Source: Hyellaceae cyanobacterium CSU_1_1 (GTDB taxonomy: Bacteria > Cyanobacteriota > Cyanobacteriia > Cyanobacteriales > Xenococcaceae). From it: a DNA stretch of 24,000 bases. Of the stretch, positions 1-23,715 are shown piece after piece. The stretch lies in the NCBI GenBank assembly GCA_012034765.1, contig JAAUOU010000049.1:2274-26273 (forward strand), given 5' to 3'. The notes below the pieces were generated by a model. It was not told the origin of the DNA. It saw only the letters and a list, made by a program, of their open reading frames with translations, and made no database searches. The number at the start of each line of letters is the position of its first letter. The first letter of the stretch is position 1. Position numbers and translations under genes: made by a program.

Positions 1-1330
1 ATAAAGCAAGGGTATGGAAACCGAGAAACAAAGACACCCAACTGAGGTGAGAAATAATTGCCTCTTTGTGGTCTAAAACTCTCGCTAAGACATTATCTCG
101 ATTCAATTCTGGGTCATAGTCTCGGACTAGGAAAATCGCCCCATGAGCAAATGCACCAACCATTAAAAAGCCAGCAATATATTGATGATGGGTATACAAG
201 GCAGCAGTGGTAGTAAAATCCTTGGCAATAAAAGCATAGGGAGGCATGGAATACATATGCTGTGCCACCAAAGAAGTAATTACCCCCAAACAAGCCAGAT
301 GCCATCCCAACTGGAAATGCAGCGAATCATTGTAAGTATCGTAAATTCCTTTGTGTCCCCGACCAGTATTAGGAGCGATAAAGAAACCATCCCAACCAGG
401 GCCAGATAAAGCCTCAGTCATCTCTTTAATATTGTGGCCGATACCGAAATTGGTACGGTACATATGTCCTGCAATAATAAAGATAACGGCGATCGCTAGA
501 TGGTGATGAGCCATATCTGTCAGCCACAAAGACTCGGTTTGGGGATGGAAGCCACCTAAAAAGGTTAAAATTGCCGTTCCAGCCCCTTCTGATGTACCAA
601 AGATGTGTCCTGCGGTATCGGGATTCTGAGCATAAACACCCCAATTACCACTAAAGAATGCTCCTAAACCAGCAGGATGAGGTGGAGTACTTAAAAAGTT
701 ATCCCAGCCTACGTGTTGTCCACGAGATTCGGGAATTGCCACATGAATTAAGTGACCAGCCCAAGCTAAGGAACTAACGCCGAATAGACCGGCTAAATGG
801 TGATTGAGTCGCGATTCGGCATTTTTAAACCAAGCCAAACTGGGGCGGAATTTAGGCTGTAAATGTAACCAGCCAGCAAATAACATTACTGATGCTAGCA
901 GCATCAAAAATATCGACCCCATATATAGCTCATTGTTAGAGCGCATCCCAATGGTATACCACCAATGATAAACACCTGAATAGCAAATGTTAACGGGATT
1001 AGAAGCGCCTGCTTGGGTAAAGGCTTCAATCGCCCCTGGCCCAAATTGTGGATCCCAGATAGCGTGAGCAATGGGCGGAATACTGATTGGATCTTTAATC
1101 CACAGTTCAAAGTTGCCTTGCCATGCGACGTGAAATAATAGTCCCGATGTCCACAGGAAGATAATGGCAAGATGACCAAAATGAGAAGCAAAAATCTTTT
1201 GATAGAGATTCTCTTCCGTCATACCGTCATGCAGTTCAAAATCATGCGCTGTGGCAATTCCGTACCAAATACGTCGGGTAGTTGGATCTTGAGCAAGGTC
1301 TTGGCTAAATTTAGGAAATTTAGTAGCCAT
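1..1330 (-). CDS. psaB2: Photosystem I P700 apoprotein A2 (PsaB), far-red-type paralog. 5' portion only, continuing past the left window edge.
   Basis: Missing from the ORF track because the frame has no stop inside the window. Manual minus-strand translation from ATG 1330..1328 gives [63 protein letters not shown]...[100 protein letters not shown]..., open through position 1. The listed ORFs at 114-1366 are all in other frames. Confidence 0.92.
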
Positions 1331-1362
1331 AATAGTTGCTTAATTTTTGAAGATTATTGTTG

Positions 1363-1410: not shown

Positions 1411-3741
1411 CTAACCAATTGCTGACATCCTCGCCAGGAAGAATGCCCAAGTGGTGACAATTCCCCCTAGTAGGTAATGAGCTACTCCTACAGCGCGACC
1501 TTGAGTAATACTGAGGGCGCGGGGTTGAATGGCAGGGGTAATCTTGAGCTTGTTGTGGGCCCAAACAATTGATTCGATCAGTTCTTGCCAATAGCCACGA
1601 CCACTAAACAAGAACATGAGACTAAAGGCAAAGACAAAGTGTCCTGCTAAAAACATCAAACCGTAGCCAGAAAGCGCACTATTGTAAGAAGTAATTACTT
1701 GGGAAGCTTGCGCCCAGAGAAAGTCCCGCAGCCAACCGTTATTGGTAATCGAGCTAGTAGCAAAATTACCCGCCGTAATGTGACTGATAGTTCCGTCTGC
1801 GCCTACAGTTCCCCAAACATCGGACTGCATCTTCCAAAAGAAGTGAAAAATTACAATCGATAGAGAGTTATACATCCAAAACAGACCGAGAAAAATATGA
1901 TCCCAGGCTGATACCTGACAAGTACCCCCTCTTCCTGGCCCATCACAGGGGAAGCGGAAACCTAAATCGCCTTTATCGGGAATTAAACGAGAACTACGAG
2001 CATATAAAACGCCTTTGAGTAGTACCAACACCGTGACGTGAATGGTAAAAGCATGAATATGGTGAATCAAAAAGTCTGCCGTCCCCAAGGTAATCGGCAT
2101 CATTGCCACTTTACCCCCAACAGCCAACACTCCCCCACCAAAAGCATAACTTACAGGTTCACTTAACCCAGGTGCAGTAGTTCCCAATCCTCCCAGTGCA
2201 ATATTATTTAAACCACCAAAGACATTCCCTAACGGTTGGGCTGCTTCTAGTGCTGAATTACCAACCGCCATTGTATGGATGTGCTGAATCCACTGAGCAA
2301 AGACGGGCTGTAACTGAATTCCCGTATCCGAAAACATATCTTGGGGACGACCAAAGGCTCGCATTGTATCGTTATGACAATAAATAGCAAAGCTATGGAA
2401 GCCTAAAAATTGACATACCCAGACCAAATGAGAAGTAATAGCATCGCGGTGACGCAGCACTCGGTCTAATAAGTTGTTGACGTTTTCCGCTGGGTTATAA
2501 TCTCGCACCATAAAAATAGCAGCATGAGCAGCAGCACCGACTATCAAAAATCCGCCAATCCAAACATGATGGGTAAACAAAGATAGGGTAGTAGCATAGT
2601 CAGTCGCCAAATAGGGATAGGGTGGCATTGCATACATATGATGTGCCACGATAATGCTAAGAGAACCTAACATTGCTAGATTGATGGCAAGTTGCGCGTG
2701 CCAGGAAGTAGTTAAAATTTCATATAGACCTTTATGTCCTTGACCTGTAAATGGCCCTTTATGAGCTTCTAGTATTTCCTTCATGCTGTGACCAATACCC
2801 CAATTGGTACGGTACATATGTCCCGCAATAATTAAGACCACTGCTAGTGCCAAGTGGTGATGGGCAGTATCCGATAGCCACAAGCCACCTGTAACAGGAT
2901 TCAAACCACCTTTAAAGGTCAGAAAGTCAGAATAGACTCCCCAATTTAGAGTAAAAAATGGTCTTAATCCTTCGGCAAAACTAGGATAAAGTTCAGCCAT
3001 CTTACTAGCATCAATAAATTCATGAGGAAGAGGAATATCCGCAGGAGCAACTCCTGCGTCTAAAAGTTTATTAATGGGTAGTGCCACATGAATTTGATGT
3101 CCTGCCCAGCCTAGTGAACCTAAGCCTAGCAATCCAGCTAAATGATGATTCATCATCGACTCAGCATTTTGAAACCATTCTAATTTGGGGGCGCGGACGT
3201 GATAGTGAAACCAGCCAGCAAAGATCATTAGAGCAGCCATTACTAAACCGCCGATCGCAGTACAATAAAGCTGAAACTCATTAGTAAAACCAGCAGCACG
3301 CCAGAGTTGAAATAAACCAGAAGTGATCTGGATGCCATGAAAACCACCACCCATGTCGCCATTGAGAATGTCTTGACCAAAGATCGGCCAAACTACCTGC
3401 GCGCTGGGTTTAATATTAGTCGGACTGGCTAACCAAGCAGTATAGTTAGAAAACTTGGCACCGTGAAAGTACATTCCACTCAGCCAGACAAAAACTATCG
3501 CTAAATGTCCGAAGTGGGCGGAAAATATTTTGCGGGAAATATCTTCTAAGTCTCCAGTGTGAGTATCAAAATCGTGAGCGTCAGCGTGTAGATTCCAAAT
3601 CCAAGTGGTAGTTTTTGGGCCGCGCGCCAAAGTGCGGTCAAAATGTCCTGGTTTTGCCCACTTTTCAAAAGAAGTAGGTACAGGATTAGTATCTACGACA
3701 ACTTTCGCCTTTTGCTCCGATTCGGAAGGGCTAATTGTCAT
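1411..3741 (-). CDS. psaA2: Photosystem I P700 apoprotein A1 (PsaA), far-red-type paralog
   Basis: 776-aa ORF with a typical PsaA N-terminus ([35 protein letters not shown]) and the FX cluster loop [15 protein letters not shown]. An AAGGAG Shine-Dalgarno sits about 9 nt upstream of the ATG on the minus strand. Confidence 0.97.
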
Positions 3742-3966
3742 TTATATTCTCCTTCACTAGTTAATGGTTATTGGTTATGTACTGTCAATTGCCAACAACT
3801 AATGATAATTAAATGTATTTTGGGTGTAGATTTGCCTATTGTTTTAAACCTGCGCTCTGTAGTGGCGCAGAGGTATAATCGCACTCTTCATTTAGCTTAT
3901 TTCTAGCTAAAACTGAATTGATTTTCTTGGAACGTACTAAATCTGCGTTGTGCAATTTCATCACCA

Positions 3967-4018
3967 TAATTCCTTGCTAAAGGGTAAACATCGACTATTA
4001 CTGCGGTTTCCGAGGCCA
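3967..4018 (-). promoter_or_regulatory. Conserved upstream element, copy 1, oriented toward psaA2
   Basis: The reverse complement reads TGGCCTCGGAAACCGC-AGTAATAGTCGATGTTT-ACCCTTTAGCAAGGAATTA. The same two boxes recur at 10010..10068 and 11299..11352. Confidence 0.6.
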
Positions 4019-4599
4019 AAGGTAATAGAACGACTTTAATAAATTCAACTACTAATCAAACGGGTTTTGTTCGATTGCTTAATTTGTATGATGTTGGAAA
4101 AAAACTAAGTTTTGTGATGCAATATCATAGATTGCTCTATTTAAACTTATATCAAAAGACAATGATTAATTACAAAATGATGCTTTTGTTTTTACAAAAC
4201 TTTAACACTTGAGTATAAAAGTTACTAGGGTTAGTTGTTCTGAGCTTTAAAACCATTTATATATGTATATGGCTTTGATAGAAAAAACAAAATAGATAAT
4301 TATTAAAAATAATCAGTAAAAAACAGCTAACAGGAGCTAAAAGTCAACAATTGTTAAATATCTGAATATTTTTTCAAGTTTTTATGTAGAAGTAGAAATA
4401 AGCTGTTATTCATTTATTTTGATCGCTCACAAGCCTTGCTGCAAAGATTCTAGACTTTGAAAATCCTAATTTAAATGCATGTCAGCTTAATATCAATTTA
4501 TTTGAATCAGACAATAATTAGATAACATTATTTATTCTTTGAGGCATAAAGTCACTTATCTTTGAATTTAAAACTAACATATATTTTGGTTTGCATTTT

Positions 4600-6461
4600 A
4601 TGAAAATCTTATTAGTTGAAGATGATGAACTTATTGCTCAAACCCTAGAAAATGTTTTGCGCGATCGCACTATATAGTCGATCGTGCTGATGAAGGTGAT
4701 TTAGGTTGGGAGTTTGTCGAGGCTTATGATTATGATTTAATTTTGCTCGATATTATTTTACCTAAACTAAACGGAATAGAGTTTTGTAAAAGATTGCGTT
4801 CGGCGGGAAATCAAACTCCAGTATTATTATTGACTGCCCAAAATTCTAGTGATAAAAAAGTAATTGGGTTAGATGCAGGAGCAGATGATTATGTCGTCAA
4901 ACCTTTTGAAATTACCGAATTATTAGCTCGTATTCGTGTTTTATTACGTCGCACAAATTCTTTGTTGTTACCAGTTTTACAATGGAGAGAACTGAGCCTT
5001 AATTCTAGTATTCACGAAGTAGTTTATCAAGAAAAAATACTAAATTTAACTCCCAAAGAATATCGTTTATTAGAGCTTTTCTTACGCAGTAGCGATCTTG
5101 TTTTGACAAAAGAAATGATCTTAGATCGTTTGTGGGACATAGAAGAAGCCCCTAGTGAAAATGCGATAGCGGTTCATATTAAAGATTTACGGCGCAAACT
5201 AAAACAAGCAGGTGCTAGTACTGATTTTATTGAAACTGTTTATGGTATTGGTTATCGTCTTAAGGCATTCAATACCGATACTGCTGCTGAAAAAAGAGAA
5301 AAAAAAGAACCGCAAACAGAACAATTATTGCGCCAACAAATCAAGCAAAAATTAAACACAGTTTGGGAAAAGTTTGAGGACGTAAATAGTGATCGCTTGA
5401 CAATTCTGGAACAAGCAAATCATGCTTGGCTAGCGGATAGTTTAGAAAGTCAGCTTTTAGAACAGGCACAATGGGCTGCTCATAAGCTAGCGGGAGGATT
5501 AGGGGTGTTTGGCTTTGCCCAAGGCTCTCGTTACGCCCTAGAGATGGAAGAATTATTAAAAATCGAATCCAAAACGGATCGAGGGAGAGAATTTTCGGAA
5601 CTATTAGCAGCTTTAAAAAATTCCTTAAAATCTGATCTTGAGCCACAATTAAACCCAGTAAATCAAAATCGACCAGTAATCTTGGCGGTAGATAATCATC
5701 CCCAACTAGTAAAGCAATTAGTCGCTGAGATGAGCGCGCTCGACATGAGCTTTCAACTGGTAAAAAAGCCCATATCTCTGAAAAAGGCTTTAGCCAGGAC
5801 TAGTCTTAATGCTATTATCTGGGATTTTTCCCTGGCTAACTTTACTGCCAAAACCATCGATGAATTTGCTCAAATCCTGGCAGAGAGCTTGCCCCTACCA
5901 ACAATCTTATTTACCGACTCTGAAGAAGAAGCAGCAAAGCTCAAGAACATAACTTCTTTACGGTTAAAAATCGCCCGTCTCAATCATCACATCTTGCTAC
6001 AGCGGGCTAGTTTGGATATGCAGGCTACCAAATCAATCGTCAAAGCTTTACAACAATTTCAGCAGAAAGTTGCCAAAATTCTGGTGGTAGATGATGATCC
6101 ACAGATCCTGGCGACGATCAAAAATTTACTAAACCCCCTCAACATCGACTTGACTGTTTTAGATAAATCCCTAGATTTGTGGCAGATAATCCCTGAATTA
6201 AAGCCAGATCTACTAATCTTGGATGTGGCGATGCCTGACCTAAATGGGATTGAGCTATGTCAACTACTGCGAAATGATTGCCGTTGGCAAGAGTTACCAA
6301 TTTTGTTTTTGACAATTCACAATGACCTTACTACTGTTCAGGAAATTTTAAGAGCAGGTGGTAATGATTGTATTAGTAAAACCCAAACTTCCTCACAATT
6401 AGTTCCTAAAATATTTAATCACCTTAATCGGGGTCAATTACTTACCAGCTTAGTTTCATGA
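4600..6461 (+). pseudogene. rfpB: RfpB-type response regulator (REC, OmpR-type winged helix, HPt-like segment, degenerate REC, REC). The reading frame is broken near 4668 as sequenced, possibly by a sequencing artefact.
   Basis: ATG 4600 opens MKILLVEDDELIAQTLENVLRDRTI* with the stop at 4675. The receiver continues in another frame (HYIVDRADEGDLGWEFVEAYDYDLILLDIILPKLNG...), which is the listed 4743..6461 ORF. Winged-helix segment: LTPKEYRLLELFLRSSDLVLTKEMILDRLW...VYGIGYRL. C-terminal REC: KILVVDDDPQ...DLLILDVAMPDLNG. Confidence 0.85.
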
Positions 6462-8980
6462 ATAATGAACAATTAAATTTTAAGCAACCACAGCATCCTC
6501 AAAGGATTGCTAACGACAAAGCTGATTCTCTAGAGATGTTGCTGCATCGGATGATTAATCGCATTCGACAATCTTTGGAATTGTCGGTCATTCTCTCTGG
6601 CACTACTGCAGAGGTGCGATCTTTTTTAAGAACAGATCGAGTTAAAATTTATCAATTTAAACCAGATGGTAGTGGAGAAGTTGTAGCTGAATCAAGGTGC
6701 GATGACCAAATAAATCATCATTTGCCATCTTTATTGGGTCAACATTTTCCAGAGGAAGATATTCCTCCACAAATCCGCGAACTTTATCTTAAAGATCGCC
6801 ATCGAACTATTGTGAATGTTGCTGCCAACCAAATCGGTATCAGCACCTTAACTGATGAGCATGAGGGTGAATATATTCAATTTCGCACTGTCGATCCTTG
6901 TCATGCTGAATATTTAACGGCAATGGGAGTTCAGTCTTCTTTAGTAGTGCCGATTATTGATGAAGACAACCTTTGGGGATTGTTGGTTTCTCATCATCAT
7001 TGTCCTCGTATAGTGACCGCGAGAGAATTAGAAGTAGTTCAGTTAGTTGCGGATCAAACCTCAATTGCGATCGCTCAATCCAATTTATTAGAATCTGCCC
7101 GCGTCCAAGCCAAGCAAGAAGCCTCAATAAATCTGGTTGGTCAGTCTTTACATTCGATGACTCCCATGCAGCTACAACAGGCTTTGCAGCAAACTGTGGT
7201 GGCTTTACAAGGATCGGGAGGTAGAGTTTATATTGCCCCGCCCAATTCTGATTCAGAAGCACAATTATATGTTTCTGGAGAACAACCTATATTGTTACCC
7301 AGAAAAAAGAAAGCATCAATTCCTTTGGAAGAACATCCAAACTGGCAAACCTGGCTCAAACAAGCGATCGAGAGTGACAGTGTAATTCAACCCTGGGCGA
7401 TTGGTTATGCCAGCTCAAAAAGCATCGTTGAATTAGCTTTAAATCTGTTACCGTCGCAGCTAGAAAGAGCCTTTAAACCGACTAATATCAAAAGTATCTT
7501 AACGATTAGGTTAGAACATCGGCAAAAAATCTTAGGTTATCTCAGTATTTTTCGCCAGGGTGTAGATATTGAGACTATTTGGGCAAAACGTCCCGATCGC
7601 GATGATCCTCGTAATCAATTTCCCCGTCAATCTTTTGAGACTTGGCGCGAACTCCAGCAAAATAAAGCCCGTCAATGGGAGAAGAGAGAAATTGAACTAG
7701 CACAAATTCTAGGTAGTCACTTTGCGATCGCTATTTTTCAATATCAACTATACCAGCAGATTCGCACTCTTAACGCTTCCTTAGAACAGCGAGTGGAAGA
7801 ACGAACAACGGAGTTACAACAAACCAATCAGCAATTAGTCCAGGAAATAAGCGATCGCTTAAAAACCAGAGACTCCCTGGAAAGACTAAGTCATCAAAAT
7901 GAATTGATTTTAAATTCAGCAGGAGAAGGCATTTATGGACTCAACCTAGAAGGGATCACTACCTTTGTTAACCCCGCTGCTGCGGAAATGCTGGGATATC
8001 AGATAAATGAATTAGAAAACCAGCCGATGCACGAGATGGTCAATCACTCGACAGCAGAGGGAGTTGTCTATGCTTGGCAGGATAATCCCATTTATCAAAC
8101 CATCCAAACTGGCGAGATACACCACGTAACTAATGAGGTATTTTGGCACCAAGATAAATCTAATTTTCCCGTAGAATATGTTAGTACTCCCATTAAAGAA
8201 AAAGAGCAGATCGTAGGGGCAGTAGTAATTTTCAAAGATATTACCGAACGACAAATTATGGATCGGATGAAGGACGAATTTATTTCGGTAGTTAGTCATG
8301 AACTGAGAACCCCCCTAACTTCTATTCGTAGTGCGATCGGCGTGTTGTCTAGTAGTGGTTTAGATCCAACATCGAGCAAAAGTCAACGCTTATTAGAAAT
8401 TGCCCTCGATAATTCCAATCGTCTGGTGCGTTTAATTAATGACATTTTAGACTTAGAGCGCATTAAATCTGGCAGAGTAACTATGGTTAAAGGAAGTTAT
8501 GGTGCTACAGAAGTAATGATTGATGCCGTAGAGATCATGCAAGGGATAGCGGATAAAGCTCAGATCCAACTAGCCATACAACCATTATCAGTTCAAGTGC
8601 GAATCGATCGCGATCGCATTATTCAAACCCTCACCAATATAATTAACAATGCTATCAAATTTTCTTCCCCTCATACTTCCGTTGAGATAGCTGCCCAGCT
8701 AATCAGTAATGATATAGTCAGATTTCAGGTGAGAGATCGGGGTAGAGGCATTCCCCAAAAAAACTTAGAAACAATCTTTGATCGTTTTCAACAAGTTGAT
8801 GCTTCCGATTCGCGAGATCAAGGGGGAACGGGTTTAGGGCTGGCAATTTGTCGCAGTATCGTCCAGCAACATGGTGGTCAAATTTGGGTGGAAAGCACGT
8901 TAGATCAAGGTAGTACATTTTATTTCACTTTGCCAATTGGTTATCAAGTCGATACTAGGAAAGAACAATCTCATGACTAG
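6458..8980 (+). CDS. rfpA: RfpA-type knotless phytochrome histidine kinase (GAF with Cys-His bilin motif, GAF/PHY, PAS, HisKA, HATPase)
   Basis: 840 aa. GAF motif FRTVDPCHAEYLTAMGVQSSLVVPI with Cys codon at 6899..6901. PAS segment NSAGEGIYGLNLEGITTFVNPAAAEMLGY. H-box FISVVSHELRTPL with His codon at 8297..8299. G-box GGTGLGLAICRSIVQQHGGQIWVES. The start overlaps the rfpB stop as ATGA (6458..6461). Confidence 0.9.
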   Translation: MNNEQLNFKQPQHPQRIANDKADSLEMLLHRMINRIRQSLELSVILSGTTAEVRSFLRTDRVKIYQFKPDGSGEVVAESRCDDQINHHLPSLLGQHFPEEDIPPQIRELYLKDRHRTIVNVAANQIGISTLTDEHEGEYIQFRTVDPCHAEYLTAMGVQSSLVVPIIDEDNLWGLLVSHHHCPRIVTARELEVVQLVADQTSIAIAQSNLLESARVQAKQEASINLVGQSLHSMTPMQLQQALQQTVVALQGSGGRVYIAPPNSDSEAQLYVSGEQPILLPRKKKASIPLEEHPNWQTWLKQAIESDSVIQPWAIGYASSKSIVELALNLLPSQLERAFKPTNIKSILTIRLEHRQKILGYLSIFRQGVDIETIWAKRPDRDDPRNQFPRQSFETWRELQQNKARQWEKREIELAQILGSHFAIAIFQYQLYQQIRTLNASLEQRVEERTTELQQTNQQLVQEISDRLKTRDSLERLSHQNELILNSAGEGIYGLNLEGITTFVNPAAAEMLGYQINELENQPMHEMVNHSTAEGVVYAWQDNPIYQTIQTGEIHHVTNEVFWHQDKSNFPVEYVSTPIKEKEQIVGAVVIFKDITERQIMDRMKDEFISVVSHELRTPLTSIRSAIGVLSSSGLDPTSSKSQRLLEIALDNSNRLVRLINDILDLERIKSGRVTMVKGSYGATEVMIDAVEIMQGIADKAQIQLAIQPLSVQVRIDRDRIIQTLTNIINNAIKFSSPHTSVEIAAQLISNDIVRFQVRDRGRGIPQKNLETIFDRFQQVDASDSRDQGGTGLGLAICRSIVQQHGGQIWVESTLDQGSTFYFTLPIGYQVDTRKEQSHD

Positions 8981-9341
8981 AAAAATTTTAATTATCGATG
9001 ATGATGACGATATTAGAGAGGCTACCCAACTTTGCTTAGAAATCGTTGGTAATTGGGAAATTGTGACCGCAAATTCGGGAAAAACAGGTTTGGTTGTGGC
9101 GATCTCCCAGCAACCAGCTCTAATTTTGCTCGATGTAATGATGCCAGATATGGATGGTTTAGAAACTCTCAAACAATTACAAGTTAACGCTGTAACTAAA
9201 GACATTCCAGTTATGTTCCTCACGGCAAAAGCCCATCCAGCCGAACAGCGTCAATTTACCCAATTAAAAGTATCAGGGGTGATTACTAAACCCTACGATC
9301 CTTTTGAGCTATCAAATCGCATCGCTAAGGTTTTAGCTTAA
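8973..9341 (+). CDS. rfpC: RfpC-type single-domain CheY-like receiver
   Basis: MTRKILIIDDDDDIREA...LILLDVMMPDMDG...VMFLTAK...VITKPYDP has the full set of receiver signature residues. The preferred start ATG 8973 overlaps the rfpA stop (8978..8980) by 8 nt. The ORF-track start at 8937 only adds non-receiver residues inside rfpA. Confidence 0.85.
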   Translation: MTRKILIIDDDDDIREATQLCLEIVGNWEIVTANSGKTGLVVAISQQPALILLDVMMPDMDGLETLKQLQVNAVTKDIPVMFLTAKAHPAEQRQFTQLKVSGVITKPYDPFELSNRIAKVLA

Positions 9342-9463
9342 CTCAACACAGATGATCTTATCGAAGATAGAAGCGTAAGATCGCGATCTGGTGCTTCATT
9401 GGTTATTCAGATTTGTTGTTTAGTATTCAATTAAGAAAATGTCACACTGTTGACAACTTAGAG

Positions 9464-9874
9464 ATGCTAACACCAACAGATGTCCCGTCAATGCCAATTG
9501 AAACTCGACGTATTTTACTAATTCATACTGATGATGCAATCGCCGAAATGATGCTGCTTTGTCTTGAGACTATTCCCGACTCGGAAGTAATAACGGTAGA
9601 TTCTGGTCTGGAAGGAATTGAGAATGCTTCAGCAGCAGATGTTATTCTCCTCGATATTGATGAAACAATGCCCGATTTATGTTGGAGAGAAATAGTCCAA
9701 AATTTAAAACAAAATTCCTCAACTAATTCCATTCCTCTTATTCTTTTGACAGCTACACCTCAATCTCAAGAGCTACTTGAGTTTCAGCAAAATGAAGAAC
9801 TAAAAGCGATCGCCAAATCCTTCGATCTTCTAAATCTAGTCAATCAGATTTCTCTCCTACTCAACTGGAATTAA
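9464..9874 (+). CDS. Divergent single-domain receiver (CheY-like) directly downstream of rfpC. The start is uncertain: ATG 9464, ATG 9491 or the listed TTG 9413.
   Basis: RRILLIHTDDAIAEMML...ADVILLDIDETMPDL...IPLILLTATPQ...KAIAKSFDLL keeps the acidic pair, the phospho-Asp, the Thr and the Lys positions of a receiver, but with low overall similarity to RfpC. Confidence 0.6.
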   Translation: MLTPTDVPSMPIETRRILLIHTDDAIAEMMLLCLETIPDSEVITVDSGLEGIENASAADVILLDIDETMPDLCWREIVQNLKQNSSTNSIPLILLTATPQSQELLEFQQNEELKAIAKSFDLLNLVNQISLLLNWN

Positions 9875-10009
9875 TTAATACGAACTATTAATTTACCGAT
9901 TATTTACCTTCTTCATAAGTTTTTCAGATTGGTTAGGTAATATTTTTGCAATGGATGTAAATTAGTTGCCATCCAGTTAGAATTCTTTCAGTGATAACCC
10001 CATCGTTTC

Positions 10010-10068
10010 TGGCCTCGGAAACCGCTAACGACGGGGTGTTTTGTCCCTACCCTTTTAGCAAGGAATTA
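10010..10068 (+). promoter_or_regulatory. Conserved upstream element, copy 2, 122 nt upstream of the psbA3 ATG
   Basis: TGGCCTCGGAAACCGC-TAACGACGGGGTGTTTTGTCCCT-ACCCTTTTAGCAAGGAATTA. Confidence 0.6.
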
Positions 10069-10190
10069 CTAATTATGCTATCGCATTTATCCCTTTTTAG
10101 ACAAAATATTCTATTTCCAACATTTTCTCTGTTCGCCGACTCCGAACAAATTTGACTTATCCAACTTTTCTTAAGAGACAGCAAAAAACT

Positions 10191-11273
10191 ATGACTACGA
10201 CTATTGAGCGATCACAACCATCCGACTTATGGGAGCGTTTTTGTCGGTGGGTAACAAGTACGGAGAATCGACTATATATAGGTTGGTTTGGGATTTTGAT
10301 GCTCCCGTTACTAGGCGTTTCTATCTGCGTTTTTACGATCGCCTTTATTGCTGCGCCTCCCGTAGATATTGATGGTATTCGCGAACCTGTATCTGGTTCA
10401 TTGCTCTATGGCAATAATATTATTACCGCAGCCGTAGTACCTACATCCAACGCTGTCGGTTTGCACTTTTATCCCATTTGGGAAGCTGCCTCGGTAGATG
10501 AATGGCTATACAATGGTGGCCCCTATCAAATGATTGCTTTTCACTATATTCCTGCCCTTTGTTGCTATTTGGGTCGAGAATGGGAATTAAGCTATCGCTT
10601 GGGGATGCGTCCTTGGATTTGCGTGGCTTTTAGTGCGCCTTTGGCAGCGACTGTCTCTGTCTTTTTAATCTATCCCATCGGACAGGGAAGTTTTTCAGAC
10701 GGTTTACCTATGGGTATTAGCGGTACATTTAACTTTATGTTTGTCTTTCAAGCCGAGCATAATATTTTGATGCACCCATTCCATATGCTGGGGGTAGCTG
10801 GGGTGTTTGGAGGTTCATTCTTTGCAGCCATGCACGGTTCGTTGGTCACATCCTCTTTGATTAAAGAAACCAGTGATAGCGAGTCTCAAAACAATGGTTA
10901 CAAGTTCGGTCAAGAAGAAGAAACCTACAACATAGTTGCTGCCCACGGCTATTTCGGTCGCTTGATCTTTCAATACGCTAGCTTCCAAAACAGTCGCAAC
11001 TTACATTTTTTCTTAGCAGCATGGCCAGTGGTTTGTATCTGGTTTACCGCTTTGGGTATCTGCATTATGGCATTTAATCTCAACGGCTTTAACTTTAACC
11101 AGTCAATTTTAGACTCTCAGGGACGAGTACTACCTAGTTGGGCAGATGTGATCAACCGTGCCAGTTTGGGATTTGAAGTTATGCACGAGCGAAATGCTCA
11201 TAACTTTCCCTTGGATTTAGCCTGTGGGGAAGCTACGCCCATAGCACTAATAACACCAGTAATTCATAGTTAA
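10191..11273 (+). CDS. psbA3: Photosystem II D1 protein, far-red-type paralog with all Mn-cluster ligands retained
   Basis: From ATG 10191 the product reads [34 protein letters not shown], a canonical D1 N-terminus. It has FSDGLP (D170), FQAEHN (E189), VMHERNAH (H332/E333/H337) and PLDLA (D342/A344) plus a C-terminal extension. The ORF-track TTG at 10152 is an upstream over-extension. Confidence 0.9.
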
Positions 11274-11359: not shown

Positions 11360-12502
11360 ATGATACAGCGTGATTACGACGTTAGCCACAAGCATTCCAT
11401 ACCTAAATTTTCGACAGAATTAGATGCTAATCTCAATCTAGAAAAATCAGAAAATATTAGCTTGTGGGAAAAGTTTTGTCGGTGGGTAACAAGTACTAAC
11501 AACCGCATCTATATTGGCTGGTTTGGAGTGTTAATGATTCCGACAATGTTAACTGCCAGTATTGTTTTTATCATTGCGATCGTGGCTGCACCTCCTGTAG
11601 ATATGCAGGGATTAGGAGCGCCTATTTCTGGCTCTTTATTAAATGGTAATAATCTTATTTCCGCAGCAGTTATTCCTACCTCGGCAGCGATTGGATTGCA
11701 CTTTTACCCGATTTGGTCGGCTGGTTCAATTGATGAGTGGCTGTACAACGGAGGTCCTTATCAGCTAATAGTTCTACACTTTTTAATTGGTATTATCGCC
11801 TATCAAGATCGAGAGTGGGAATTAAGCTACCGTTTGGGAATGCGTCCTTGGATTTCTCTGGCTTTTACTGCACCTGTGGCTGCTGCTGTCTCGGTATTTA
11901 TTATTTATCCCCTCGGACAAGGCGGTTTTTCCGAAGGAATGCCTCTGGGAATTTCTGGGACATTTTACTTTATGTTCCGCTTTCAGGCAGATCACAATAT
12001 TTTGATGAGTCCGTTCCATCAGTTAGGGGTAATTGGAGTTTTAGGTGGTGCATTACTTTGTGCAATGCATGGCTCAATTGTTACTTCTTCTGTGATTAAT
12101 AAGACAAATAAATATGAATCAATTAATCTGGACTACAAACTGGGTCAAAAAAAGCCAACCTATAGCTTTTCTAAGTCGCAAAACTATCAAAGAAGTCTGT
12201 GGGGATTCAGTTTTCCCAGTTCGCGATCGCTCCACTTTTTCTTAGCTGCTTTTCCCGTAGCGGGGATTTGGTCGGCAGCGATCGGCATTGACATTGCGGC
12301 TTTCGACTTTGAAGGATTTAATTTTCAACAGCCTACTATTGTCAATCAAGGAAAAATCATTCCTACCTGGATGGACGCTATTTTAGATGCCAATTTGGGT
12401 TTGTCGGAGACTACCAGGCAACCTAATACATTATCTGTTTTTCCTGACTGGCAAATTGATTCAGAACAAGAAATCGACAATTTTCCTGGTTATCTAGACT
12501 AG
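11360..12502 (+). CDS. chlF: Super-rogue D1 paralog / chlorophyll f synthase (ChlF, PsbA4)
   Basis: 380-aa D1-family protein with an N-terminal extension. The Mn ligands are lost: FSEGMP, FQADHN, and the C-terminal ligand block replaced by [20 protein letters not shown]. It has [14 protein letters not shown] where D1 has Y-M/L-G. The YZ, H198, H215 and H272 contexts are kept. Confidence 0.9.
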
Positions 12503-15859: not shown

Positions 15860-17409
15860 ATGGGTTTACCTTGGTATCGCGTCCATACAGTAGTGTTAAA
15901 CGACCCAGGACGATTGATAGCCGTTCATTTAATGCACAATGCACTGTGTGCGGGCTTTGCTGGTTCGATGCTGTTGTTTGAACTAGCTTTATACGACCCT
16001 AGTGATGCTGTTCTTAATCCGATGTGGCGACAGGGCTGTTTCTTAATGCCGTTTGTAGCTCGTTTGGGAGTAACCAATTCCTGGCAGGGTTGGAGTATCA
16101 CGGGTGAAACCCTTAGCGATCCTGGTTTTTGGACTTTTGAAACTGTGGCGATCGCTCACATTATTTTATCAGGGCTATCGTTTTTAGCCGCCTGTTGGCA
16201 TTGGGTTAACTGGGATTTGGTGACTTTCTTTGACGAAGAAGGTCAACCTACCTTAGATTTACCCAAAATATTTGGCATACATCTTTTACTCGCTGGTTTA
16301 CTCTGCTTTGGTTTTGGTGCTTTTCATCTCACGGGCATTTTTGGGCCAGGGATGTGGGTGTCAGACCCATATGGATTAACAGGACATATGCAAAATGTTG
16401 CTCCCGTCTGGGATGCAGCGGGTTTCGATCCTGATAATCCTGGGGGAGTAGTGGCACACCATATTGCCGCTGGCATTGTCGGTATTATCGGCGGACTATT
16501 TCATATCGTGGTGCGTCCTTCAGAGGAACTATATAAACTACTGAGGATGGGTAACATCGAGGGGGCATTAGCTAGTGGTTTGGCAGTCTTCTTTTTTGCA
16601 GGTGCGATCGCTAGTGGTTCAATGTGGTACGGAACGGCAACAACTCCTGTAGAACTATGGGGGCCAACTCGTTTTCAATGGGATAAGGGCTACTATCAAC
16701 AGGAAATCTCCCGCAGAGTAGAAAATAACTTGGTAGCAGGGGATAGTTTATCTCAGGCTTGGTCAAGTATCCCAGAAAAATTACTGTTCTATGACTACAT
16801 CGGTAACAATCCCTCTAAGGGTGGTTTATTCCGCTATGGTCGCATGGTTGATGGCGATGGTTTACCTCTGGCTTGGCTTGGTCATCCGATTTTCCAAGAC
16901 GATGCAGGAAGAGAGTTAACAGTTAGGCGCATGACTAGCTTTTTTGAAACTTTTCCCACTGTCTTAACTGACGAAAATAACATCGTTCGTGCTGATATTC
17001 CCTTCCGTAGAGTCGAAGCAAAAAATAGCTTTGAGCAAACAGGAGTTACTGTTAGTTTCTACGGCGGACTGTTAGACGGTCAAACTTTTACTGACCCTGT
17101 AAAAGTCAAAAATATGCTCGTCAAGCAGTATTAGGAGAAGCCTTTGAATTTGATACGCAAACCTATAATTCCGATGGCGTATTCCGCACTAGTAATCGAG
17201 GTTTCTTTGCCTATTTCCACGCCTGCTTTGCTTTACTCTGGTTTTTCGGTCATATCTGGCATGGCACGCGAGCCTTATTCAGCGATGTCTTTGCTGGTAT
17301 CAATATCGAACTAGAAGAACAAGTCGAGTTTGGCGTTTGGGCAAAAGTTGGCGATGTTACCAGTCGTAAAAAGCCAGAAGCTTTAGCAATTGAAAGTCAA
17401 TCCAAGTAA
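15860..17409 (+). pseudogene. psbB2: Photosystem II CP47 (PsbB), far-red-type paralog. The frame is broken in an A5 run at 17108..17112 as sequenced, possibly by a sequencing artefact.
   Basis: The listed ORF 15860..17134 ends ...[15 protein letters not shown]. The missing CP47 C-terminus ([63 protein letters not shown]...[20 protein letters not shown]...) is open in the neighbouring frame as far as TAA 17407..17409. Confidence 0.9.
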
Positions 17410-19485: not shown

Positions 19486-21772
19486 ATGAACGTTAATACA
19501 GGTGGCGGTAGTCCCATTGTTAACCCGCAACTATATCAAACAACACCTCTTGCCGTAATTTCTCAAGCCGAACAGCAGGATCGTTTGCCAAAACAAAGTG
19601 AACTCAATCGACTTGCCAGTTATTTTAGCTCTGGTACAAAGTTATTAGAAATTGTCGATACCCTGAATCAGAATGCCGATGCAATCGTGGCTGCTGGGGG
19701 CGATCGCATTTTCTCTGGCGGTAATTCGATGGACTATCTAGAAAAGCCTAAAGAATTAGTCGATTTGCCTGGTTATGTAAAACCTATCACTGTTGCTAGT
19801 GCTGCGGTTGCCAAAGCAAATGCTACTCAGAATCAGAATAAATTTAAGACTTTTCCCGAGTCTCGATCTTTAATTAAAGGTCGTACCTTCAACTTTGTCG
19901 AATTGTTAATGGAAATAGTTTATCGACTCCAAGCAACAGGCAAAGAACCACTGCCAGGAGGATTCAGACCGATCAATATCTCTCGTTATGGCGAAAGAAG
20001 AATGAAGCGGTCAATGCGAGACTTAGGTTGGTTTCTACGCTATATTACCTATGCGATCGTGGCTGATGATCCGAGTATTTTGGTAGTAAATGCCAGAGGA
20101 CTACGGGGTGTCATTCCTGAAGATGTCACCGTAGCTACTATAGTCGCTCTCAAAGAAATGTGCTGGAAGTCTTTGAGCTATTTTCCCGATCATGAAGAGG
20201 CAAAAGATACTATCAAATATTACTTTTATGTCTTAATTAAAGAATACGAAGTTGAAAAGCCTGCTGCCAAATTGCGAGTAGGTGTATCCAATGACCAACA
20301 GGGACTAGAGTTACCCCAAAGTTATTCCTTAGCAGCAGAATCACGACCAAAGTTTGTGATGAAACACAACGCCTCGGCGATAGAAAAGCAAGCAGTAGTT
20401 AAAGCAGCTTATCGACAAGTATTTAAATGCGACATCGATCGCACCTACGGCATTACTTTTAAACAATTGGAGTCTCAGGTTACGGGTAGCAATACCTCGG
20501 TGAAAGAGTTTATTCGCAGCTTGGGTAAAACTCGTCTCTATCGTCGCTTGTTTTACGAACCATACACCATTTCTAGAGTGATCGAACTGGCATTTCGGCA
20601 CTTTTTTGGGACGGGGTTTGAGTTCGATAGAAGAGTTTCAAGATTACTTTGAAATCATGGCTCGTGGTGGTTTACCAGCTTTGATTGACGCTTTAGTGGA
20701 CTCTGCCGAATACGCTGATTATTTTGGTGAAGAAACTGTTCCCTATCTGCGAGGTTTGGGTCAAGAAGCTCAAGAATGCCGTAATTGGGGAGCGCAGCTA
20801 AATCTATTCAAATATAGTGCTGCGGTGCGAAAAGTACCTCAATTTGTCACGATGTTTGGCAACTATCAACAACCTCTATCCAACCAGCATCCCTACGGTG
20901 TGGGCAATGATCCTTTAGAAACTCAATTTGGTGCAGTTTTCCCAAGTGAAACCAACAATCCTTATGCTCAACCAGCATCCTTTAATAAAGATCATCACCG
21001 TCTGCTGCTACATTCTAGTTCAAGAATTCAAAATGTAACTAATAATTACTCTTCAAAAGAGATTTTAAAACAAAGCCAAAATGATAACAAACATCGGCAG
21101 CGAAATATTAATCTCTCAAATCATTCTGTTGAAGCCATCATTACAGGAGTATATCGGCAGGTTTTGGGACGTGAGCCTTTTTCTGGTCAACATTTAACCG
21201 TAGCTGAAACCAAACTAAGAAATAGTGAAATTAGCGTCCGTGAGTTTGTCCGACAGTTAGCTAAATCCTCCTGGTTTCGTAATTTGTATTGGGATAATCT
21301 TTATATTACTAAAGCGATCGAGTGTATTCATCGGCGTTTATTAGGTCGTCCTACCTACGGACGTGGGGAAATGAATCGATATTACGATCTTTGCTCCAAA
21401 AAAGGCTTTTATGCTCTAGTTGATGAAATCTTAGACAGTGATGAATACTTAGAAGTGTTTGGCGAAGATATAGTCCCCTACGAACGTTATCTAACCCCCA
21501 GAGGTTGGGCAAGGCGATCGCTCTCTCAACCGATTAACTGGTCACAGGCTCAACTAGATCGTCAGCATACTGCGGGAGAAGTTATAGCCGAAAAAATTAG
21601 GGAAGATCGCGATCGTCTGACCAGATTAGCATCCCAAAGCAACGGTCATGTTCGCGATCGAGTAGCAGAACAAACATCCTTAAAAACAATTGAGGACAGT
21701 AAGGAGCCAGTTACTAACTCCAATTCAATTCCAGTTGAACTCGAACCAGAAAAGCTAAAAGCTGATAGCTAA
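19486..21772 (+). pseudogene. apcE2: Phycobilisome core-membrane linker ApcE, short far-red-type paralog with two REP (linker) domains. The frame is broken in a T6 run at 20602..20607 as sequenced, possibly by a sequencing artefact.
   Basis: The listed ORFs 19486..20652 and 20606..21772 overlap in different frames. The first ends ...[24 protein letters not shown]. The second begins (L)[49 protein letters not shown], the continuation of the same Pfam00427-type linker domain. The N-terminal phycobiliprotein-like domain contains MKRSMRDLGWFLRYITYAIVADDPS. Confidence 0.9.
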
Positions 21773-22791: not shown

Positions 22792-23715
22792 TTACTGCCA
22801 AGCAATCTGCTCCACATCTCTCTGAAGGTCTTCACTCGTTCCACGAACATAAACCATTGTCGTATCTAGAGAATCATGTCCCATAATTTGAGCCAAACGA
22901 TGCAAAGGAACAGTTTCCGCCATGCGATAACCGAAACGATGACGTAAATCGTGAGGACTAACATCTTCAACCCCAGCAATTCGGGCATATTTATCAACTA
23001 AATATCCCAAGGCACGAGTAGTTATCGTAGTTTTTGTTTTCCGAGAAACAAATAGCCAACTACCTGTTACCGTAGGGAGATATTCTGACAACACCTTTCT
23101 AGCTGTCGCATTGAGAGGAACTTCTCGATACTTGTTTCGTTTGCCATAAACCTGTAGATAGCCACCGCGTTTTCTTAAATGAATATGCTCGCTCTTTAGC
23201 TGACAAACCTCTGCTGCTCTCAAACCCGTATGAAGCATTAAGATTATAATTGCCCTATCTCTGAATAAACCATGACTTGTGACTGCTGAGACAAGTGCCG
23301 ATTCTTCCGCATCGTTGATTTGACGGGGTGAAGATTTCATCAAAGGAATTAATTTAACTACTGTCGCAGGATTGTTAGTAATCTTTTTCAAGTCAACAGC
23401 CCAAGAAAAATAAGATTTGAGAGTTACCAAATAACGATTGATAGAAGCAGGAGCTAATTTTAGTTGAGATTGAAGATAACTGCGATAACGAATTAAAGTA
23501 GGGGTAGTAATTTGCTCTAGTTGAAAACCAACCCTTATTGCTTCAGAAGATTTGATACTTTTGGTTTCATACCAAACTATAAAGGAGTGTAGATCGGATA
23601 AATAATTACGAATCGTTACAGGACTAATATCTCTTTGCCCACATAGATATGATTTGTAGTCGGCTAATTCCTGACGACTTGATAGCGATAAAGATGAGAT
23701 AGCACCAGGTTTCAT
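22792..23715 (-). CDS. Tyrosine site-specific recombinase (XerC/XerD / phage-integrase family, TnpI-like role suspected)
   Basis: 307 aa with an N-terminal SAM-like core-binding segment (ISPVTIRNYLSDLHSFIVWY) and the catalytic signature TGLRAAEV ... HDLRHRFG ... GHDSLDTTMVYVR (Arg, His-x-x-Arg, His, Tyr). Confidence 0.85.
   Translation of the reverse strand: MKPGAISSLSLSSRQELADYKSYLCGQRDISPVTIRNYLSDLHSFIVWYETKSIKSSEAIRVGFQLEQITTPTLIRYRSYLQSQLKLAPASINRYLVTLKSYFSWAVDLKKITNNPATVVKLIPLMKSSPRQINDAEESALVSAVTSHGLFRDRAIIILMLHTGLRAAEVCQLKSEHIHLRKRGGYLQVYGKRNKYREVPLNATARKVLSEYLPTVTGSWLFVSRKTKTTITTRALGYLVDKYARIAGVEDVSPHDLRHRFGYRMAETVPLHRLAQIMGHDSLDTTMVYVRGTSEDLQRDVEQIAWQ

Follow-up and report, generated by a model that had tools for sequence, protein, structure and literature searches.

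Is the run of overlapping genes in this stretch of cyanobacterial DNA the light-responsive control operon that it resembles, and can its regulator be read as the sequence is written? The window (the whole 24,000 nt analysed, from contig JAAUOU010000049.1 of Hyellaceae cyanobacterium CSU_1_1) comes from a Pleurocapsa-like cyanobacterial metagenome-assembled genome (MAG), and the genes rfpB, rfpA and rfpC within it form a regulatory operon of the canonical type for far-red light photoacclimation (FaRLiP). An earlier note on the sequence (the original prediction) had described a three-gene cassette built around a knotless phytochrome. Taken entire, positions 4600..9874 are very probably best explained as the FaRLiP regulatory operon rfpB-rfpA-rfpC-rfpD of a Pleurocapsa-like cyanobacterium, whose products would act as a phosphorelay and whose rfpB frame is broken by what leans towards a sequence error. 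All three predicted genes are present and their identification is borne out by Pfam architectures, alignment to knotless phytochromes, the FaRLiP paralogues on the flanks, a recurring gene order and the match to the operon of Zhao et al. (2015); a fourth member, rfpD, had been overlooked. RfpA, RfpB and RfpC have been shown genetically to be the master controllers of FaRLiP (Zhao et al. 2015, PMC4658448).

RfpA is encoded between rfpB and rfpC within the FaRLiP cluster. The sensor kinase and the two receivers downstream of it have the following features:

6458..8980, plus strand: rfpA, knotless phytochrome histidine kinase, intact open reading frame (ORF) of 840 codons (ORF list, Pfam)
6581..7072, plus strand: GAF domain of RfpA, residues 42-205 (Pfam)
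6899..6901, plus strand: TGT codon of RfpA Cys148, in the DPCH motif (residues 146-149)
7499..7729, plus strand: PHY domain of RfpA, residues 348-424 (Pfam, 30.8 bits against a cutoff of 27)
7622..7636, plus strand: PRQSF of RfpA (PRxSF tongue motif), residues 389-393, within PHY
7901..8248, plus strand: PAS domain of RfpA, residues 482-597 (Pfam)
8267..8473, plus strand: HisKA domain of RfpA, residues 604-672, with the H-box SHELRTP at 8294..8314 (Pfam)
8606..8938, plus strand: HATPase_c domain of RfpA, residues 717-827 (Pfam)
8973..9341, plus strand: rfpC, single receiver domain, 122 aa (Pfam REC, 85 bits)
9464..9874, plus strand: rfpD-like stand-alone receiver, 136 aa from ATG 9464 (Pfam REC, 32.2 bits)

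The Pfam calls confirm the domain order GAF-PHY-PAS-HisKA-HATPase for RfpA. The original prediction had placed a bilin-type GAF domain at the very start of the protein and a second GAF/PHY-like region, a PAS domain and a complete kinase behind it; the second region is PHY, and the rest is as described. Only 41 residues precede the GAF domain, Pfam finds no PAS domain there, and the alignment to structures in the Protein Data Bank opens at residue 24. When RfpA residues 1-441 were compared with solved structures, the top match was the GAF-PHY module of SyB-Cph1 (8w26, E 2.8e-72, residues 24-440), and further top matches were 6oza (a single-GAF knotless phytochrome with an All2699-type GAF) and Cph2 (4bwi). 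These knotless GAF-PHY proteins (SyB-Cph1 8w26, 2lb5 and 2k2n, 6oza, and Cph2; E 2.8e-72 to 6e-51) likewise have a photosensory module without the PAS/knot and align at the VDPCH cysteine. The predicted Cys codon at 6899..6901 thus holds, with the VDPCH of RfpA (Cys148), the bilin-binding cysteine, aligned to the VDPCH of SyB-Cph1 8w26. What RfpA has beyond these phytochromes is a PAS domain, a complete HisKA/HATPase output and its tie to a FaRLiP cluster. RfpA alignments are split in three of the related loci, with the breaks at 8292..8473 in L017, 8277..8445 in L019 and 6762..7003 in L023; the sequences suggest that 60-80 residues are inserted either behind the GAF domain or within the kinase, or that L019 has changed frame.

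The product of rfpC, directly downstream of rfpA, is the bare receiver that had been predicted. It has the acidic pocket DDDDD (residues 9-13), the acceptor Asp54 (LLDVMMPD), Thr84 (LTAK) and Lys106 (TKPY). The product of the following gene is 36% identical to RfpC and keeps the DD, Asp, Thr and Lys residues; the gene is conserved downstream of rfpC in 11 related loci. Its start is ambiguous among TTG 9413, ATG 9464 and ATG 9491, the last of which gives 127 aa. A REC-superfamily gene downstream of rfpC and in the same orientation, named rfpD, is present in 35% of FaRLiP clusters (Antonaru et al., bioRxiv 10.1101/2024.05.15.594131). The gene at 9464..9874 matches this definition, with a size of 127-136 aa against the 'approx. 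80' aa given in Table S8 of that study.

The closest relatives of RfpA are from Pleurocapsa, Hyella and Hydrococcus genomes and MAGs (60-84% identity), followed by Chroococcidiopsis and Nostoc (53-57%). All of these have rfpB upstream and rfpC downstream of rfpA, and the order rfpB-rfpA-rfpC was found in about 25 related loci, a synteny that extends across orders. Listed FaRLiP carriers with this gene order include Hydrococcus rivularis NIES-593, Pleurocapsa CCALA 161 and Chroococcidiopsis FACHB-1243. The RfpA/B/C systems of Chlorogloeopsis fritschii PCC 9212 and Leptolyngbya sp. JSC-1 (Gan et al. 2014; PMC4658448) share with the window the gene order within a FaRLiP cluster, an RfpA with no N-terminal PAS, the canonical Cys and the GAF-PHY-PAS-HK architecture, an RfpB with two receivers and a winged helix, and a lone receiver RfpC. 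Zhao et al. (2015, PMC4658448) describe the operon as rfpB-rfpA-rfpC with RfpA as GAF-PHY-PAS-HK; in their account RfpB has a winged helix between two CheY domains, and the shuttle is the CheY-like RfpC. The window differs from these systems in a 1-nt deletion in rfpB.

As written, no single ORF spans rfpB (4600..6461). The frame of ATG 4600 terminates after 25 codons at TAG 4675..4677 (translation MKILLVEDDELIAQTLENVLRDRTI), and the rest of the protein, starting HYIVDRADEGDLGWEF..., is read in the -1 frame from 4668 and comprises residues 24-620. The ATG at 4600 corresponds to the start of the orthologues. The original prediction had taken rfpB as intact, but the frame breaks after 69 nt. When the nucleotides are aligned with those of ten orthologues, one base is missing at 4668/4669, on the 3' border of a HIP1 palindrome (4661..4668), where the window reads cgcgatcg-cactat against cgcgatcgccattat in L004 and L007. 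The parts of the gene, with domains called on a repaired protein of 620 aa, are:

4600..4677, plus strand: 5' segment of rfpB, with the orthologous ATG and codons 1-23 (MKILLVEDDELIAQTLENVLRDR), then an out-of-frame run to the TAG (translation, orthologue N-termini)
4661..4669, plus strand: frameshift site, with one C after the HIP1 palindrome GCGATCGC where L004 and L007 have CC (nucleotide alignment)
4668..6461, plus strand: main body of rfpB in the -1 frame, residues 24-620 of the repaired protein and the TGA (Pfam, invariant residues)
4743..6461, plus strand: longest intact rfpB ORF, TTG start, 572 aa, the product recorded by gene callers
up to 4937, plus strand: remainder of the first receiver (REC1), with the Asp51 codon at 4749..4751 (Pfam on repaired RfpB)
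5040..5261, plus strand: winged helix (wHTH; Pfam on repaired RfpB)
5364..5618, plus strand: HPt domain, residues 256-340, with the His295 codon at 5481..5483 (Pfam on repaired RfpB)
6081..6428, plus strand: second receiver (REC2), with the Asp542 codon at 6222..6224 (Pfam on repaired RfpB)

We searched the repaired RfpB with tblastn against 25 related loci, 19 of which have an rfpB orthologue upstream. In all 19 the alignment starts at residue 1 and continues in a single frame; among these loci, only the alignment of the window's own rfpB begins at residue 24. No uninterrupted frame in the sequence as written encodes the N-terminal receiver together with the acidic pocket. Only two codons separate the start of the 572-aa ORF from Asp51, the phospho-acceptor of the first receiver, and judging from its sequence its product would be without the acidic pocket and the first three strands of that receiver.

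In the repaired protein, Pfam identifies a REC domain (residues 3-113), Trans_reg_C (148-221), Hpt (256-340, scoring 31.3 bits where the cutoff is 24.6) and another REC at the C-terminus, giving the layout REC-wHTH-HPt-REC. The two CheY-type receivers around an OmpR-type winged helix are therefore both there, together with an Hpt domain. This bears out the prediction of a multi-domain DNA-binding regulator, from which the HPt domain had been missed. The residues expected of each module are invariant in 15 of the 15 RfpB orthologues aligned (44-84% identity), namely E7, D8, D9, D51, T79 and K101 in REC1, H295 in the HPt motif AAHKLAG, and D498-500, D542 and K594 in REC2. The HPt domain is explicit in the window's RfpB, whereas the published description, in its accessible portion, has no more than a winged helix and two CheY domains. 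In RfpB homologues the HPt domain is already named by automated annotation, and PF01627 (Hpt) is precomputed in all 120 listed homologues; an open-literature search for RfpB together with HPt returned irrelevant matches only. In seven Nostoc/Aulosira loci (L009, L010, L011, L013, L020, L023 and L024) RfpB aligns only to residues 1-320/338 and ends shortly afterwards. By sequence these proteins would be REC-wHTH-HPt regulators without the C-terminal receiver, which fits the reported lower size bound of 361 aa.

How might these parts work together? The type III chromatic acclimation system RcaE/RcaF/RcaC likewise combines a photoreceptor kinase, a lone receiver and a large OmpR-class regulator. 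RcaC has the layout REC-DBD-HPt-REC, which the layout of the repaired RfpB matches. The parallel drawn by the original prediction is upheld, with an RcaC-like REC-wHTH-HPt-REC arrangement in RfpB, and all parts of an Rca-type four-step His-Asp-His-Asp relay are conserved (the H-box of RfpA, Asp54 of RfpC, and H295, D51 and D542, invariant in the 15 RfpB orthologues). RcaE phosphorylates RcaC via RcaF (PMC8256508, which cites Kehoe & Grossman 1997). RcaE is a cyanobacteriochrome-type sensor with the architecture PAS-GAF-PAS-HK, unlike RfpA, and Zhao et al. (PMC4658448) found that the two are not closely related and that their regulons do not overlap. The likeness between the two systems is one of mode of operation and not of sensor family membership.

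We propose a relay inferred from domain content, orthologue genetics and the Rca system; the domains, catalytic residues and synteny on which it builds are observed. RfpA is predicted to carry a bilin on Cys148, in the GAF domain at its N-terminus, and to sense the red/far-red ratio. Far-red light would set the state of the kinase, which would autophosphorylate on the histidine of the H-box (SHELRTP). The phosphate would then pass to Asp54 of the lone receiver RfpC, possibly also to RfpD, from RfpC to His295 in the HPt domain of RfpB, and from His295 to a receiver aspartate of RfpB (Asp51 and/or Asp542). The OmpR-type winged helix of RfpB would activate the flanking FaRLiP photosystem and phycobilisome paralogues. 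The original prediction had also envisaged direct transfer from RfpA to RfpB. Because the HPt histidine is invariant, the four-step relay is likelier than that direct step; by analogy, the HPt domain and rfpD both point to the path RfpA to RfpC to HPt to receiver.

We then asked whether the rfpB deletion belongs to the organism or to the assembly. A consensus error of homopolymer-prone sequencing seems slightly the likelier origin, since the window carries two other homopolymer frameshifts that are not in its sibling assemblies:

17107-17112: break in psbB2, A5 against A6 in siblings L085 and L086, which encode an intact 516-aa CP47 paralogue
15860..17134 and 17095..17406, plus strand: psbB2 ORF and its continuation in another frame (single-base deletion)
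20602-20607: break in apcE2, T6 against T5 in siblings L089 and L090, which encode an intact 761-aa ApcE2
19486..20652 and 20606..21772, plus strand: the two apcE2 ORFs (single-base insertion)

The protein sequence on either side of the rfpB shift is also still fully conserved. Sibling contigs from GCA_012030825.1, GCA_012033675.1 and Logan assemblies SRR14117740/41 were compared with the window over 5-19 kb and differ from it by 0-1 true substitutions and up to about seven single-base indels per 19 kb. The variable indels (window positions 795, 1356, 3140, 3978, 4098, 6644, 6721, 11641, 14844, 17107, 17756, 17968 and 20602) all lie in A/T runs of 2-7 bases and almost all are private to one assembly. 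Private indels break psaA2, rfpA and chlF in one sibling and rfpA and psbD3 in another. Sequencing errors in homopolymer length leave just such a pattern. The window's RfpA matched no record in an exact look-up, and rfpA is broken by private indels in sibling assemblies. MAGs from the same accession block and with the same bin-name format (SL_7_1, RM2_1_2, RU_2_2) are listed as Cape Recife/Schoenmakerskop microbialite MAGs, and the study that produced them sequenced on IonTorrent P1 chips and assembled with SPAdes (options --iontorrent --only-assembler). We infer that the sibling contigs belong to this IonTorrent project. The link rests on bin-name format and accession block because the accessions and run numbers were found in no paper (JAAUVB, JAAUOH, SRR14117740 and the GCA numbers returned nothing in the literature search or in the Antonaru supplements).

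Several observations weigh against a sequencing error. In a protein search the window's 572-aa product (P0001) formed a singleton cluster present on several contigs, and the next matches were intact proteins of 617-620 aa, 84-85% identical. By exact look-up the product is on four contigs, JAAUVB010000062.1 (GCA_012030825.1), JAAUOH010000068.1 (GCA_012033675.1), the Logan assembly of SRR14117740 and one further contig, so that the deletion is common to all four contigs that span the site, while 0 of the 14 other indel sites were shown to be wrong in every assembly. What the deletion has shortened is a run of two C in a GC-rich palindrome and not an A/T run of three or more bases, which sets it apart from the demonstrable errors. 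No intact 620-aa version of the window's RfpB was present in a collection of 5.8 billion proteins, and the connection of JAAUVB and JAAUOH to the IonTorrent study is itself drawn from the naming of the bins and the accession block. Elsewhere in the window, intact ORFs contain three more GCGATCGCC sites and six GGCGATCGC sites. A systematic miscall at HIP1 followed by CC can be ruled out, as these nine comparable sites (CC or GG flanks) are read correctly. HIP1 palindromes occur 20 times in the 24-kb window (for example at 489, 4661, 7067, 9806, 13610 and 19023), and the deletion abuts the one at 4661.

The main alternative, which we hold to be somewhat less probable and a serious contender, is that the deletion is real and fixed in a natural population. 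Translation from ATG 4600 would then end after 25 codons, and at best a 572-aa RfpB without the first 48 residues of its N-terminal receiver would be made from TTG 4743; FaRLiP would either be lost, with rfpB a very recent pseudogene, or run without normal receiver control. This alternative carries weight because every available assembly covering the site has the deletion; two MAGs or more, and a Logan re-assembly made independently, are among them. Errors here are mostly private to one assembly, so a coincidence in all of them is unlikely, and both the position outside A/T homopolymers and the correct reading at the other HIP1+CC sites point the same way. However, the contigs probably come from one project and one chemistry, whose indel errors can be demonstrated at roughly one per 5 kb; each of the other FaRLiP genes is unbroken in one assembly or more, and no extra decay is seen in the first 48 rfpB codons. 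A real deletion would also remove the invariant E7, D8 and D9. In Chlorogloeopsis, FaRLiP is no longer induced once rfpB has been deleted (Zhao et al. 2015, PMC4658448), and the loss of rfpB would be costly in a far-red-enriched habitat. That the deletion is real and the FaRLiP cluster is nevertheless still in use, with a 'receiver-less' variant of the master regulator in a permanently far-red-enriched stromatolite niche, is improbable; if it were true, RfpB would act via its HPt domain and C-terminal receiver, or constitutively.

The break in rfpB also affects how the gene overlaps are to be understood. Two overlaps can be read directly in the sequence exactly as they had been predicted:

6458..6461, plus strand: ATGA shared by the rfpB stop TGA (6459..6461) and the rfpA ATG (6458..6460)
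8973..8980, plus strand: 8-nt overlap ATGACTAG, with the rfpC ATG at 8973 and the rfpA TAG at 8978..8980

Four-base ATGA overlaps are the commonest kind of overlap in bacterial operons. The original prediction had taken the overlaps to imply fixed stoichiometric co-expression of the three genes. We surveyed about 21 loci with rfpB and rfpA and about 24 for rfpA/rfpC, with the starts of orthologues assigned by alignment and hence approximate. The rfpB/rfpA ATGA overlap recurs only in L004 (Pleurocapsa CCALA 161) and L007, and two more loci have a possible overlap that depends on the start chosen; the other rfpB-rfpA gaps range from about 12 to more than 400 nt, and heptamer repeats often occupy them. 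Between rfpA and rfpC, an overlap is again present in five of the roughly 24 loci (L001, where it is 1 nt, L004, L015, L018 and L025), with spacers of 10 to about 770 nt in the others. The window thus has stop/start overlaps where most of its orthologues do not. Fixed stoichiometry is unsupported because most orthologous loci have spacers and the overlaps are lineage-specific, and an overlap shows at most translational coupling, not a fixed ratio. From sequence, the overlaps would allow translational coupling in the window's lineage and are not a conserved design feature. If the deletion were real, the coupling of rfpA translation to rfpB would be weakened, since ribosomes starting at 4600 would stop 1.8 kb before the rfpA start and coupling would depend on a restart at 4743. 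Tandem heptamer repeats (cattggt, cattagt and cagaatt types) fill the rfpB-rfpA and rfpA-rfpC spacers in Nostoc and Chroococcidiopsis, and such spacers follow the rfpB stop in L009-L013, L017, L020 and L024.

Window ORFs and domain calls place the operon between psaA2/psaB2 on one side and plus-strand FaRLiP genes on the other:

2..1339 and 1411..3741, minus strand: psaB2/psaA2
10152..11273, plus strand: psbA3 (720 bits, above the psbA cutoff)
11360..12502, plus strand: chlF-like psbA paralogue (509 bits, under the psbA equivalog cutoff of 596)
downstream of the chlF-like gene, plus strand: psbC2, psbD3, psbB2, three allophycocyanin genes and apcE2
22792..23715, minus strand: tyrosine recombinase/phage-integrase gene, directly after the last phycobiliprotein gene of the cluster

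The psbA paralogue at 10152..11273 retains D170/E189/H332/E333/D342/A344-type residues, and the pair is consistent with psbA3 beside chlF. A consensus scan of 3700..10200 yielded no promoter or terminator signal that exceeds the shuffled background, with 26 promoter-like sites (19.5 +/- 4 in shuffled sequences) and 3 terminator-like sites (5 +/- 2.4 in shuffles), none of the latter between operon genes; this neither supports nor contradicts a single transcript.

It is very unlikely that the rfp genes are instead a generic knotless-phytochrome two-component system that lies near photosystem genes and does not control FaRLiP. RcaC-like regulators with the REC-wHTH-HPt-REC layout are indeed widespread (5434 matches at E<=1e-30), and control of FaRLiP at this locus is read from sequence and synteny. 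However, a complete FaRLiP cluster surrounds the operon, with psaA2 on one side and psbA3/chlF on the other, the same synteny is found across orders, and in the literature RfpA orthologues are confined to FaRLiP genomes, with rfpA/B/C always syntenically linked. Least credible of all is that rfpB is decoded through the shift by programmed -1 ribosomal frameshifting or transcriptional slippage that yields full-length RfpB at a regulated low level: both frames around the site still encode conserved protein and the deletion is common to all assemblies, but direct reading of 4655..4675 reveals no slippery X XXY YYZ heptamer or long A/T run and 0 of 19 orthologous loci are frameshifted there, so that a recoding signal is not conserved, and we dropped this explanation for want of both a slippery site and conservation.

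The rfpB-rfpA-rfpC system is already known, and FaRLiP clusters from the same MAG series have been catalogued previously. The clusters of Pleurocapsa sp. CRU_1_2 and SU_5_0 (Antonaru et al., bioRxiv 10.1101/2024.05.15.594131) come from the same habitat-derived MAG series and are of the same type as that of the window; the sibling contigs are presumably these named MAGs. The optional downstream receiver rfpD, oriented like rfpC, occurs in both the window and that catalogue, and the window's RfpA, RfpB and RfpC fall within its size ranges (684-977, 361-694 and 122-172 aa, respectively). In the searched portions of the preprint and its supplements the word 'frameshift' does not occur and no rfpB frameshift is mentioned.

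Annotations or expression constructs that take rfpB, psbB2 or apcE2 from the sequence as it stands would be wrong, since the window carries single-base indels. If the rfpB deletion is real, nature would have supplied a test of what the N-terminal receiver contributes to RfpB. The invariant HPt histidine of RfpB makes the path from RfpA through RfpC and the HPt domain to a receiver the hypothesis to test.

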